This document shows, piece by piece, positions 12,972 through 46,691 of a stretch of 64,000 nt of DNA (positions are counted from its first letter, which is position 1; the number at the start of each line of letters is the position of its first letter). This DNA comes from Perkinsus olseni (Eukaryota), in contig JABANN010000008.1 of assembly GCA_013115125.1 (NCBI GenBank), forward strand, positions 1-64,000, given 5' to 3'. The notes under the pieces were generated by a model, which was not told the DNA's origin, did not search any database, and worked only from the letters and a program-made list of their open reading frames with translations. Made by a program: the position numbers and the translations under genes.

Positions 12972-15163
12972 ATGACAGAATCTCCCAAAAAGAGAGGTTC
13001 CGTCGTGAAGGAATCTTCCCATGCTTCGAAGGCCATGGGGGTGATTCTTCCTTGCATTGGGTATTTTATGGTACTAGCTTTTGGTCCAACAATCCTGAGG
13101 CGATGCGCAGTGGCTGCCGGACTCGATCTAAATGGTCATGGGTAAGAACTACTCGCTGCAATGCCTGCCAGTCGAGTGTCTTCTTCAGGACAACAGGAAA
13201 TGCTCTGGCGGACGCCGCGGGTGTGGTCCTCCTATTTTTGGTACTGGCTGAGGCTCCCTTGCCTGGTCCATTAGTTGTGACAGTAGCTGCCACACTTGCG
13301 TCCATTCCGATGCATGTAGGCGGGGACTTTCTGGTGGTCGAACCGGTCTGGTTTGCCTACAGGTTTACGGCACAGCAGTGAAGGCGATGCTCAGTTATGT
13401 TGACGAGTGGAGCTTCATGGTAATGGGCGGTGGAGAATCGGACGACTCTGTTCTTTTCGGTATCATACACGGCTGGCGTGCACGAGGGCCTGGTCCTTGG
13501 TCCTTTCATAACACGATTCGGTCGTCATGCTACGATCTTGTCGCAGGCATTTGTTGTTCCGTACACGATATGCTGTACATTCTGGCTGACGTCGACGGCC
13601 GCGTATGTAATTGAGTACTTTAACTTGTTCCCAGTGGAGGGAAGGATCATTCAGCCCCGTAGGAGACTGTTACCCGAGGATCCTAAGTTCCAAAAGTACG
13701 CTTCTCGATGGCGTCTAGTGAAGGCTGGATTCAGACTGCTCTCAGGCTGCTACGAGTATGCGCATTGAACACGATCGTACTGGTGCCCCTCATTGGTATG
13801 GGAAGCTTCTACCTGCAGCACTACCGAGACACCATCGGCTTGTACGTGGACATGGATCCTGAGAGGCTCCCGTCGAAGCTGGAAATAGCAGTGCAGATGA
13901 TGTAATAAGTAGCCACCTGGCCTCATTGTATGGCATGGTGACGTACTGCTTCGTCTATTCCGGCCGAGGGCTTGAGAGAAGCGCCCATGTTTTACAGCTT
14001 GTCGTGAGAACTCATAGTACCAGTTGATGATAATTCGCTGTGTCACTTGTGTGTGCGCGTGATGAGAATGAAGAGAGCTGGATCGCTGAGATTGGTTTCC
14101 TTGTCGTTGCCCAGTTACTTTATATTAGTCAACGAGTTCCTCTTCTTTTACGGTCACTGGTTATTCCACGCTAGTCCCTATCTATACAAGAAGATTCACA
14201 AGATGCATCACGAGTATCCAGCACCGAATGTATTCGCCTCACTGTAAGATCGTAAAGATTAATCGGCCAAGTATTCCTGTGCCACGAACGGTTGTTTATG
14301 AATGTTTGTTTACCCCTGGCCGGCACAATGACTTGGATATGTTTAGGTATTGCCACCCGTTGGAGTTGGTCATAGCGGATTTCGTTCCTCTCGGAGCTGG
14401 AGCTTTCTGTCTTGGCGCGCATTGCTGTAATACATGAGGGCTGGTCAATTGTTGCAACTGATGACTAGTATAGGAATACGACGATCGATTTGTAGAATAT
14501 TTTGGTCGCCCTTCGTTGGCGCGATGGAGGAGTTTTCGTGCTCTGAACAGCGCTTGCCGCTCGTAGGCTGCTCTCGAGTGACCGTTTCGGTGAAGCGTTT
14601 TCTCGGTTTCCCGCCTGTGGAGTGCAGCATCATCGGTCTACCTAGTTCCCTCCGTGACAATAACAACGACGTTTCCTCCTCAGCTACCTTCCTTCTGTGG
14701 TCGATTTATGCGGTGTTGGGGACAGAGGCTCATCACAGTGGCATACGGTAGTCTCTCAGTAGCTCGGTCTGTGCTGCGGCCTTTCGGGTGGGATCTCGAC
14801 CTTCGTGCAGGCAGGCGCACATAGTCGAAGTTGTAGCTCTGTGAAGCGGTGGAAGAGTGAATAGTTTGTTTTAGGTGGCCGTGGATTGTGTGGTTTGATC
14901 ATCAGCCTGATTTCCACGACTTTCATCATGAAAAGTTCCATGTCAACTACGGGAATATAGGATTCCTAGATAAAATGCATGGTAGCACCGGGGATTGAAC
15001 CTGTGCCGAAACACGCCTATCGATCTGTAGTCTGGTGCGTCCGCTGTTGAACTACTCGGTAGGTACTGATGGTCTGTGGAGAGCCCATCTGGCTCAACTG
15101 AGGGCTTTACGGGAAAAGGAGGGGCCAGAGTCGGTGACCGCGTTAAATCGCTATTGTGACTAG
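12972..15163 (+). CDS. Sterol desaturase / fatty acid hydroxylase family oxidase (C-4 methylsterol oxidase-like, multi-exon)
   Basis: Histidine boxes HWLFH, HKMHH, AHHSG and FHDFHH, plus YCHPLE, NYG and LDKMHGTD. Confidence 0.88.
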
Positions 15164-15638
15164 CGATTCCCATGCATCAGAGTCTCATTGCGTACAGCAG
15201 GATTTGTCACTCGACGTCCAATGTCTACTTTTTTAAATTCCTTCATCTTGTGGTATCGGTGCACGCATGGCAGTCTTCGTCTGAATCATTCCAACGCCTA
15301 ACGCTAATGGAGTATGGATCCCCCAAGGTTCGAACCTGGGTGTTACTATTTCCAGTCCATTAGCGTTGTTGTGCACGAACTTTACGAGCTCAAGATGGTT
15401 ATTGTTGCGTCTTTCACACGAAGGGCAGGAGTGTCTAGTCGGTACCAAAGTGTGGGAAAAAGCACGGACTGTTCGCGTTCCCACAGCCCGTGAGTGAGCG
15501 AGTGGTGAGTGGCTGTAGTGGACTTGTGACTGTCGCTTATGTCTGGTTATGTCACATAACCAGACATAAGCGACAGTCGAACTTATGTGGGTTTGGTGAT
15601 ATGACGTTCGAAGTTTTTTGCGACCTCCCATCCAAACG

Positions 15639-16215
15639 ATGCCGGCCTCCACAAAAACTAATCACGTAGATCAGAAGCAGAAGGATGAAACGGTGAAAGT
15701 GTACACTAAGGAAGAGGTTGAAGCCCACAATAAGAGCGATGACTGCTGGATCATAGTCCACGGTTCGGTGTATGACGTCACGGACTTCGTTGAGAGCCAT
15801 CCTGGCGGACCGGAGGTGAGGTATCTTTCTAGGCTGTCGAGGGGATGCTTGGTGATGTAGGTCATCACCACAATCAGCGGTGGGAACGTCACGGAGGATT
15901 TCGAGGAGATCGGGCATTCTGATGAAGCGAGAAGGCAGGCGAAGGCACATAGGATTGGGGTGTTGGAAGGATACGAAGAAGTACTACGGCCGGGATTTGA
16001 TCCGGGGACCCTCAGGGTGACGGTCTGATCGCTCAACCTTTCAGTCCAAGGGGATTCCTATGAACTCGGAGCTCGAATCAAGCGGCGGAGTCGTTGGCGT
16101 CGGAGTTCTTCCTGTCATTTTGATTGCTGGCGTAGCCTTCGTGGCCTACTATGTAGGAAGTTAGTGGCCGTGTCATGGTTCACCTCTCCTCTCTCAGGTT
16201 ATGAGTGGCCACTGA
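15639..16215 (+). CDS. CYB5: Cytochrome b5 with C-terminal membrane anchor (4 exons)
   Basis: [44 protein letters not shown] and tail [17 protein letters not shown]. Confidence 0.93.
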
Positions 16216-44692: not shown

Positions 44693-45397
44693 TGTTTATC
44701 GATCGGTTGATCGATTTCGGTTCCTGACGATGACGTAAAGTTGACGATTTACCTGCACTGTGAGCGCAAAGCTCTCCGATGAGAATGACGATAGCCGATT
44801 GCTAAAGTTTCTTCTCGTACTATTCAAGAAGCTAATATTGAACCTGTAATTTGAGGATATTTCCTGTGGGCTACTACTGGCGAACCACAATAGTAGTTTT
44901 CTCGCTTGGGTTCGTTACAGGGTGGTGATTATTTTCAGAAGGGGGTCGATAGACATGAGAAGCTCCGTTACAAGCATCAGTGATGAGGTCATGTCCAGCG
45001 ATTCGGCTGCCTTTCATTCGCGTGCAGGTGGGCCCACGTGGCTCACTTCCTCTCATACAGCGGTCTTTCAGACGACCGCGCGAGATATCATCGGCCAAAT
45101 CCTCTGCTCAACCTAGTGACCGCAGTTTAAGACTAATCTCATATACGATCTATATAAGCATATACTGTACCATCGTAGACGAATGTTTTTCCGATAACCA
45201 GCAGTGTAAAGAACGTCGTCGGTTTCGCAGTTCTAAGGTTCTGTTTATAGCCGTTGTATCGCGTTACAAAAAGTCGGGCGGTGTGGAGAGGCTTCGCAAG
45301 AAATAACAGCGTAGAAAACCAGAGAGTCGCTATCGCCACAATAGTATTGCGCATCGCAAGTGAATCATTCTATGAGCAGCTTCTGTAGACACTTTTC

Positions 45398-46691
45398 ATG
45401 GGAAAAAAGGCCGCGAAAAAGGAAGAGCCAATCGGGGTGAGAGAAGGCGTAGCGGGAGGCTTATCGTTTCGATCCGACATTCTCGCTGACACTACCAGCT
45501 CAACTTCACGCAAGGAGTGACGGCGAGATCCATTCACGTGCATGTTGTGCTAGGTGTCTTTTAAAGCAGAGGAGTTGTACGAAGACCTTGTAAACCAAGT
45601 GGATGGTGCCGAGTTGGTGTTAGAGAAACGAACACGAGCTGCTGAGGCCGATCTGAAAAGTCTGAATGATTACAAAGAGAAGGTGACCACCTTATTAGGA
45701 GAACACCCAGAAATGCATGAGATGTAAGGATGTGCTCACCAGGTCAATCGAATAGAAGAGGTGCTCAAGGCGGATAGAATGATAACTACGAGCATACTGG
45801 GGGATCACGCGCGGAGGTAAGCAGTCTCCACCCGGCAGGGAGCGACATATACCCAGAGGGTGTGTAGCTCAGTGGTAGAGCGGCTGATTGCAGAACAGCA
45901 GGTCCTCGGTTCAAATCCGGGCGCGCCCTTGTTCGATCTCATCTCTTTTTTGCAGCTACAAGGCAACGCAAGAAGTTCTTATTCAAGAGATAAATGCACT
46001 GGAGACTAATTTAGCAGAACTTCGCGAGGATCGGGAGCTCTGCGTTCACGAGATGGAAGAAATCCTCCGAGATAAGGTGACTCAGACGATTTCAGTGACT
46101 TAAATGAACACCACATTCGTTGACTTCCGCTTCCAGGAAGATGAGTTCGCCCTAGTGGATGCACAAGAGCATGAAATCCGAGAGAAGATAGATCAGATGG
46201 CCTCAGAGTTCAGCTCGATGATGGAGGAGCTCGTCGCGAAACTTCGGTAAGTCCTATGCAACTGTGCTCTCTCGGACTTCGCGGGGAGCCAAGGCTAGCA
46301 TCCTTCACTACAATACCCAATCTCTGCCGCTAGCCAACCACAGGCTGAGTTCGATCACGAATCCACCGCGAAGAGAACCGATCCTTTTTGATTTCTGTGC
46401 TGCTACCAGACAAGCCCTCAAGACCACGCTGCCAGAGGATGAAGGATATTCATCAGCAGTCAAACTCGGCGCCGCGGACATCGAAACCCTGGACGAGTCA
46501 CAACGCGCCAGACTGGAGAAGAAAGCAGCGGCATTCTCGAAGGAAATGCAGCAGGTAGGCACTTAGGCCACTTCTTATGTACAGCATTCGCATCGATTCA
46601 GGAATTGATAGAAAAAATGCGATGCTTCGATAAGCCCAAGGACGACGTGAAAGAGATAGATGACGCCCCCGCCGGATCATCGTCAACGTGA
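45398..46691 (+). CDS. Coiled-coil protein, DRC12/CCDC153-like (multi-exon)
   Basis: MGKKAAKK start; coiled-coil exons with ILGDHARS|YKATQEVLIQEINALE and EIREKIDQMASEFSSMM, resembling DRC12. Confidence 0.5.
45858..45929 (+). tRNA. tRNA-Cys (GCA), inside an intron
   Basis: GGGTGTG/CGCGCCC acceptor, GCTC-AGTGGTA-GAGC, loop TTGCAGA, T-arm CTCGG-TTCAAAT-CCGGG. A31:A39 mismatch; T6 run downstream. Confidence 0.85.

Follow-up and report, generated by a model that had tools for sequence, protein, structure and literature searches.

Transfer RNA (tRNA) genes nested within the introns of protein-coding genes are common in animals. tRNA pseudogenes, decayed relics and a rapid turnover of genomic tRNA genes (tDNA) are general in eukaryotes, as outlined in PMC2888827, and the tRNA-related short interspersed nuclear elements (SINEs) of fungi provide an example of tRNA-derived SINEs (PMC5063351). 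Introns may themselves arise from mobile DNA, as with introners, transposons that create introns (PMC9860276), and 'invasive intronic elements' are described from Amoebophrya, a related lineage (PMC7789003). Finally, yeast and human are known to have extra TFIIIC (ETC) sites with extended B-boxes (PMC12409998). Here we describe a 64,000-nucleotide (nt) stretch of the Perkinsus olseni genome (contig JABANN010000008.1, positions 1 to 64,000; hereafter the window; GC content ~0.53) that carries at least eleven tRNA-gene relics besides three working tRNA genes. A preliminary description of this DNA had listed seven introns in six genes as consisting largely of tRNA-like sequence, and proposed that dispersed tRNA copies may create introns or preferentially colonise them. 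The pattern of tRNA relics in the window is real and unusual, and relics lodged throughout its non-coding DNA are better supported than a mechanism of intron creation.

Like the tRNA pseudogenes and tDNA relics of other eukaryotes (PMC2888827), those of the window are dispersed, come from different tRNAs and do not work, and they include one full-length copy (6365-6436) as well as shorter remnants; the set fits this class. Unlike them, the window relics are dense, at ~11 relics to 3 genes per 64 kb, and consist mostly of the tRNA 3' part with a perfect B-box; the majority are found in spliceosomal introns of about 50 nt, of which they form the greater part. With tRNA-derived SINEs they have in common a tRNA ancestry, an internal RNA polymerase III (Pol III) promoter and dispersal in both orientations, but within this window they share no body, tail or sequence outside the T-arm and form no family. 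Moreover, a 5'-truncated SINE would lose its tRNA-like head, whereas the window relics keep the T-arm. As in introners, the intron would be the short inserted sequence itself; in contrast to introners, the relics of the window form no multi-copy family, show no evident terminal inverted repeats or distinctive direct repeats, and stem from different tRNAs. The tRNA-Cys gene at 45858-45929, inside the intron 45817-45955, resembles the nested tRNA genes of animals, but it stands in an intron of no more than 139 nt, whose polypyrimidine tract is the Pol III terminator itself. ETC sites are resembled by seven orphan perfect B-boxes that lack a complete Pol III gene and stand in a gene-dense genome, one of them between divergent genes, and by a motif that may be better kept than its surroundings (PMC12409998), a likeness which in the window is one of sequence only. 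The window sites differ in carrying tRNA-gene features beyond the B-box and in that many are placed within the introns of Pol II genes, a location not met in the available part of PMC12409998. Our search of the literature, which extended to papers without their supplements, found none that connects tRNA-derived or tRNA-like sequence either with introners or with Perkinsus.

The tRNA genes, relics and relic-bearing introns of the window are listed below. B-box denotes the 11-mer GGTTCRAWYCC of the T-loop, and bit scores are from Rfam RF00005, from our own covariance model (R1), or from a hidden Markov model (HMM) of the tRNA 3' half.

11363-11434, minus strand: intact tRNA-Pro(TGG), RF00005 58.3 bits; flanks look non-coding.
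34776-34847, plus strand: intact tRNA-Thr(CGT), RF00005 67.2 bits; intergenic, ~220 nt upstream of the first BMS1 exon.
45858-45929, plus strand: intact tRNA-Cys(GCA), found by ARAGORN; RF00005 62 bits.
45817-45955, plus strand: 139-nt host intron of the tRNA-Cys gene, GTAAGC..TTTTGCAG, in a coiled-coil gene; tRNA in sense.
14982-15062, plus strand: 81-nt last intron of a fatty-acid hydroxylase/sterol desaturase-type gene; antisense relic, perfect B-box 14991-15001, position 73 falling 2 nt into the exon; 8.1 bits (3'-half HMM).
15981-16044, plus strand: 64-nt intron of a tail-anchored cytochrome b5 gene; antisense relic 15987-16047, T-loop GGATCAAATCC with one mismatch (T54>A), the tRNA 3' end coinciding with the 5' splice site.
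36744-36794, plus strand: 51-nt intron of a phosphodiesterase (PDE) gene, inferred from reading frames only and additional to the preliminary list; antisense relic, GGATCGAATCC at 36763-36773, GTCCCA upstream, A at +11, TTTCTC trailer.
37151-37204, plus strand: 54-nt intron of the PDE gene; antisense relic 37160-37200 with variable loop, T-arm, acceptor 3' strand, A73 and TTTT; 11.3 bits (R1), 10.7 bits (3'-half HMM).
39471-39516, plus strand: 46-nt intron of the PDE gene; sense relic, perfect B-box 39485-39495, A73 10 nt before the 3' splice site.
41350-41410, plus strand: 61-nt intron of an SRPK-type kinase gene; antisense relic, perfect B-box 41368-41378, A73 and then a trailer, TTTCTAC, that reads as the 5' splice site on the other strand.
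29864-29910, minus strand: 47-nt intron of BMS1, confirmed by RNA; weak sense relic with AGGTC, GGATCGATCCT, A at +11 and CTTTT.
6365-6436, plus strand: full-length tRNA pseudogene, Cys-like, 30.2 bits (R1, E 8e-8); no gene model over the site.
15302-15365, plus strand: hairpin relic, intergenic, between the hydroxylase stop and the cytochrome b5 start; palindromic GGTTCGAACC at its centre.
52669-52679, plus strand: orphan perfect B-box, A at +11; ~270 nt beyond the end of a kinase frame, between convergent genes; 8.8 bits (R1).
57054-57064, minus strand: orphan perfect B-box, AAGTCCCA upstream, A at +11, TTTTT; 7.7 bits (3'-half HMM).

We searched both strands of the window for the word GGTTCRAWYCC. 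The perfect word occurs nine times, compared with 0.23 +/- 0.46 times in 60 dinucleotide shuffles (maximum 2), for a Poisson P of ~5e-12. Two of these words belong to the Thr and Cys genes and the other seven are orphans (6415+, 14991-, 37171-, 39485+, 41368-, 52669+ and 57054-). Words with one mismatch (8 observed, 6.2 in shuffles) and with two (74 and 81) occur at close to the shuffled numbers, and 143 kb of unrelated environmental loci, used as a control, hold a single perfect word, within a tRNA gene. The 3'-half HMM, which covers tRNA positions 43-72 and was trained on the three real tRNA genes of the window only, gave nine matches of at least 6 bits compared with 0.43 in 40 shuffles (maximum 3). 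Below the real genes it ranked 6408 (14.7 bits), 37161 (10.7), 14981 (8.1), 57050 (7.7), 15990 (6.9), 39479 (6.7), 52667 (5.9) and 41363 (5.4), with 29864-29910 at 3.7 bits and rank 16, which is background. Apart from the tRNA-Cys intron, the preliminary description had listed six decayed introns; four of these hold the perfect word (14991-, 37171-, 39485+ and 41368-) and a fifth holds it with one mismatch (15993-). The enrichment of tRNA T-loop words in the window is real, and the pattern withstands the shuffled control by both word count and HMM.

Several features beyond the word itself point to tRNA genes as its source. Six of the seven orphans have A at +11, the discriminator position, compared with 21 of 74 control sites (P=0.003), and the seventh, 6415, has T there, like tRNA-Cys. 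A at +11 recurs at the one-mismatch sites 15993, 15327 and 36763 and at the two-mismatch site 29883; a T-run directly follows 37171, 57054, 41368 and 36763, and (A/G)GTCC stands upstream of six sites. What the relics retain is the 3' part of a tRNA gene, comprising a variable-loop remnant, the T-loop/B-box 11-mer, A73 and often a T-rich trailer resembling a Pol III terminator. Because of the A at +11, the T-runs, the upstream (A/G)GTCC and the further copies with one or two mismatches, we conclude that the relics derive from tRNA genes including their 3' flanks, rather than from a bare motif. The derivation from tRNA genes that had been proposed for these intron sequences is supported by the discriminator, the T-rich trailers and the variable-loop remnants. 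As had also been proposed, the relics are not one young repeat, given that self-BLAST of the window showed no similarity among relics and no pair of similar introns (within this one window). Only 6365-6436 among them resembles a tRNA gene of the window (Cys). The substitution T54>A (GGATC...) is common to three decayed relics, 15993, 29883 and 36763, which may be descended from a tRNA type with A54.

The full-length pseudogene 6365-6436 matches the tRNA-Cys of the window over 26 nt at 92% and, like it, has T at position 73. Its D-arm (A-box) and T-arm (B-box) are near intact whereas the anticodon and acceptor stems are destroyed, so that decay has spared the Pol III promoter parts. The adjoining reading frame gave no Pfam match and only weak repeat-like matches. 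The hairpin relic 15302-15365 has a one-mismatch B-box at 15327, with A at +11 and then TTT. Its fold z-score is -3.3, none of 200 shuffles being as stable, and a 10-bp outer stem encloses GGTTCGAACC; the hairpin resembles a mini acceptor/T-arm helix. The orphan word at 57054-57064 lies within the divergent promoter region of V-ATPase subunit a and MetAP2.

Likeness to a whole tRNA is a different matter. The RF00005 gathering threshold (29 bits) and a cloverleaf were reached by the Pro, Thr and Cys genes only, and the relics had no RF00005 match at E<=10, either in the whole window or in 14940-16090 searched separately. R1 gave 12.9 bits (E 0.07) for 15987-16047, 11.3 for 37160-37200 and 10.8 for 39448-39507, the last alignment taking in 23 nt of conserved coding exon; its per-intron E values were 0.07-0.38. 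In 14982-15062 and 41350-41410 the 11-mer is the sole match to R1, and in 29864-29910 R1 found nothing. With lowered thresholds, ARAGORN called 6364-6435 and 39429-39505 only beside seven further spurious-looking predictions, the three tRNA genes aside. The single tRNA in the metagenome loci (L017) is without a long variable arm, and hence offers no reference for 14982-15062. The relics in the six decayed introns have fold z-scores of -0.9 to +0.4, with no cloverleaf and no excess stability over shuffles, and 6365-6436, 52669 and 57054 fall between these values too. Because these z-scores are near those of shuffles, the relics are likely to be without RNA function. Of the tRNA-like content ascribed to the introns, what stands is the T-loop word in most of them and, in 37151, a variable loop, T-arm and acceptor strand; whole-tRNA likeness is weak in all the decayed introns.

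Marginal covariance E values, an alignment that includes coding exon, an intron at background level (29864-29910) and relics without RF00005 matches are what one would meet if short GC-rich introns with T-loop-like words had been picked out by chance. We regard this explanation as extremely improbable. Nine motifs stand where 0.23 are expected and none of the 60 shuffles exceeds two; the excess of A at +11 does not depend on the motif, and the unbiased scan returns the sites of the preliminary description as its top matches below the true tRNAs. The enrichment refutes chance resemblance for the whole set, leaving it only for 29864-29910, which is plausible as a relic but on its own merits inseparable from background.

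The seven intervals first listed all have GT..AG ends and are plausible introns. One, 29864-29910, reads CT..AC on the plus strand, making it a minus-strand intron, and is confirmed by RNA; the rest are inferred. RNA joints were taken from contigs of four public runs of RNA type over a 20-kb stretch (15 of 86 joints), one that excludes introns 14982 and 15981, and the joint 29863->29911 is present in contigs of all four runs. At 41349|41411 three Perkinsus SRPK proteins are colinear across the junction. For 39471-39516 the spliced peptide aligns without gaps to the PDE homologues L001, L005, L006 and L004, and retention of its 46 nt would shift the frame. Introns 14982, 15981, 37151 and 45817 are based on frame continuity, retention stops, our own gene finder and Pfam matches on the flanking exons: removal of 14982-15062 joins ..GFLDKMH|GTDGLW.., where retention brings a stop codon; once 15981-16044 is removed, the cytochrome b5 domain runs on into its tail anchor; 37151-37204 holds an in-frame TAG if retained; and 45817-45955 has canonical ends. 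Independently, the gene finder placed 29864-29910, 37151-37204, 39471-39516 and 45817-45955 exactly as listed, and set the 5' end of a fifth intron at 41350. The count of six genes holds, since 37151 and 39471 share one PDE gene, and with 36744 that gene has three relic introns (36744, 37151 and 39471).

Contigs of the RNA-type runs confirm 15 introns of 44-74 nt within one minus-strand gene (29351-34054). Their 5' splice sites are loose, with a GTAG start in 7 of 15, GTAGGC the commonest form and no conservation of G at +5. The pattern G|GT..AG|GT is strong, the upstream exon ending in G in 11 of 15 and the downstream exon beginning with GT in 9 of 15.

The intact tRNA-Cys in intron 45817-45955, predicted from the outset, is confirmed by agreement of ARAGORN and Rfam, and it is the one intact tRNA gene of the three that lies within an intron. 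Its T6 terminator adjoins the 3' splice site, doubling as polypyrimidine tract, and the intron amounts to an ordinary intron of ~66 nt plus the gene.

In a motif-led tally of the window, 7 of 11 relics lie in introns; four (6365-6436, 15327, 52669 and 57054) lie outside known introns. Relative to the host gene, 14991, 15993, 36763, 37171 and 41368 are antisense, and 39485, 29883 and the intact Cys gene are sense. Predicted genes hold 8,373 intron and 21,051 exon bases, which puts introns at very roughly 40-60% of non-coding DNA; our ab initio gene finder under-annotates, leaving 34.6 kb unlabelled, so that compartment sizes are rough. At a share of 0.5, seven or more of eleven relics would be intronic with a chance of ~0.27 (hand arithmetic), and an earlier tally of 5/8 gave P 0.17-0.59. 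Nor is the clustering of relics along the window significant (P 0.10 and 0.23). With introns forming about half of the non-coding DNA and four relics placed elsewhere, the suggestion that tRNA copies preferentially colonise introns is not supported: the relics show no preference for introns over other non-coding DNA.

These data allow us to propose, with about an even chance of being right, that the relics are dead copies of tRNA genes lodged in non-coding DNA, which fill introns owing to the shortness of the latter, and whose B-box is possibly constrained. tRNA genes, or their primary transcripts, would be copied into non-coding DNA at any site, and the copies would cease to work. The starting state would be represented by the tRNA-Cys gene in its enlarged 139-nt intron; deletion would then trim the relic and bring the intron back to its usual length. 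Because introns are only ~50 nt long, a relic of 25-40 nt would fill most of the intron and come to dominate it. Less firmly, the B-box may be under constraint, for example as a site that binds TFIIIC without transcription.

Several observations weigh against this proposal, the first being the position of the relics within their introns. The seven intronic relics all have tRNA position 73 no further than 10 nt from one end of the intron: the antisense relics show offsets of -2, +1, +8, +9 and +7 from the 5' splice site, and in the sense relics position 73 stands 10 and 8 nt ahead of the 3' splice site. The claim that tRNA parts fall near splice signals is borne out by this proximity, which passive lodging does not predict, though introns of 46-64 nt leave little room for anything else. 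Colonisation should also leave original intron sequence behind, yet the tRNA-like part reaches the 5' splice site in 14982-15062 and 15981-16044. Most relic introns have their intron status by inference, not from RNA, and one low-depth X1 contig (window 39345-39632) covers 39471-39516 unspliced, representing either unspliced RNA or DNA within run X1. The evidence base is one 64-kb window with 11 relics.

The same geometry would be expected if tRNA genes or pre-tRNAs had been copied into exons, shortened at the 5' end and with the Pol III terminator as their far limit, and had become introns, an account drawn from sequence features that we consider possible, if unlikely. Such inserts would be spliced out because they bring, or adjoin, splice signals that can be used. 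In antisense copies the complement of the acceptor end or trailer would supply GTAG, GTGA or GTGG as 5' splice site; in sense copies the T-run would serve as polypyrimidine tract before YAG, so that the tRNA 3' end and trailer would provide the tract together with the 3' splice site. The antisense 5' splice sites read GTAGCA, GTACTA, GTAGAAA, GTGAGAAA and GTGGGAAAA, two or three of them being the complement of the acceptor end or trailer. The proximity of position 73 to the intron end in every intronic relic favours such an origin, as do the ordinary lengths of the relic introns (46-81 nt, compared with 44-74 nt for the 15 RNA-confirmed introns), which leave scant room for older intron sequence, the loose 5' splice sites (7/15 GTAG), in whose place tRNA-derived sequence could serve, and the survival of the tRNA 3' part only, as 5'-truncated copies would give. 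Distant PDE homologues lend weak and indirect support: some are intronless at the 39471 site (and are possibly cDNA), others carry an intron 6 codons from it. The uninterrupted 899-amino-acid frame of L001 is possibly cDNA, and a metagenome scan with the PDE exon returned 24 loci, the best at 48% identity and none a close relative.

Against this origin, four like relics lie outside introns, so insertion is not bound to the birth of an intron, and the geometry is mostly forced in introns of 46-64 nt: under a null model that sets aside 20 nt for the branch point and 3' splice site, the five antisense cases have P ~0.04 by hand arithmetic. None of the introns inspected shows a target-site duplication that can be told from the G|GT..AG|GT pattern of ordinary introns. 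Repeats of 3-5 nt (GGT/CAGGT) flank four of the five decayed introns inspected (29864 and 36744 being outside this set), a pattern that ordinary introns share, GT following 9 of the 15. The decay of the flanking T-stems would moreover make the insertions old. We therefore doubt, without dismissing it, that repeated insertion into exons made introns of ~50 nt without a transposon family; were this so, the B-boxes might also still recruit TFIIIC.

Whether the B-box is kept by selection bears both on the proposal of passive lodging and on a further alternative. At the orphan sites 11 of 21 flanking T-stem pairs are intact, compared with 9/9 in the three genes, and because the 11-mer is intact while adjoining T-stem positions have decayed, the B-box is possibly under constraint. 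Two points tell against such constraint. A crude steady-state model gives P ~0.06, and selection on the B-box may accordingly be regarded as a lead rather than a result; three to four decayed B-box copies exist, and relics that had lost the motif would be invisible. By analogy with the ETC sites of yeast and human (PMC12409998), the words could be functional B-boxes bound by TFIIIC without Pol III transcription and kept by selection, their tRNA ancestry being incidental or absent. An excess confined to perfect 11-mers, the loss of about half of the flanking T-stem pairs, the occurrence in both orientations within introns and promoter regions (57054 in a divergent promoter) and the presence of GGTTCGA in six of seven orphans but in one of three working genes are all consistent with this. 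However, TFIIIC binding has no need of the A at +11, the T-rich trailers or the variable-loop remnants, all of them features of tRNA genes; decayed copies stand at 15993, 36763 and 29883, and the statistical case for constraint is only suggestive; we judge this alternative to be distinctly unlikely.

Some features of the host genes and of the surrounding sequence stand apart from the relics. Exon translations gave Pfam matches to FA_hydroxylase, Cyt-b5, PDEase_I (twice) and the BMS1 C-terminal domain. The BMS1 of the window is 99, 95 and 86% identical to its nearest proteins, from Perkinsus. SRPK-type kinases bearing Perkinsus names match as well, and the Perkinsus proteins together span identities of 72-100%. 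Perkinsus BMS1 orthologues (P0122-P0124) are labelled 'Glycoside hydrolase 2 (Mannanase, beta-galactosidase)' by their source, and given that their Pfam domains are those of BMS1 this name is likely an annotation error. In the SRPK gene, a 54-nt in-frame, stop-free stretch at ~41604-41657 is missing from all three Perkinsus SRPK proteins and is probably an intron of a kind that frame-based checks would miss. The PDE gene region contains a tandem duplication at 38760-38853 (26-nt offset, 84% over 68 nt). Near-perfect palindromes of 51 nt lie at 15528-15578 and 18848-18898, and a 35-nt palindrome at 19516-19550; the first is directly upstream of the cytochrome b5 gene and attracts Rfam matches to microRNA models, which we take to be hairpin artefacts. 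A Blastocystis origin, suggested by the intron size, was rejected: the Blastocystis signal TGTTTGTT occurs once compared with 1.38 expected.

Several Perkinsus genomes and haplotypes exist, so that the presence or absence of each of these introns is directly scorable. If the relics are passive, the window shows the speed of tRNA-gene birth and death in a compact parasite genome, and shows too that very short introns can be almost wholly foreign leftovers and yet be spliced. If the B-boxes are constrained, TFIIIC-type sites would be embedded in the introns of a protist. If instead the relics made the introns, they would represent a concrete, testable source of introns that is independent of a dedicated transposon.

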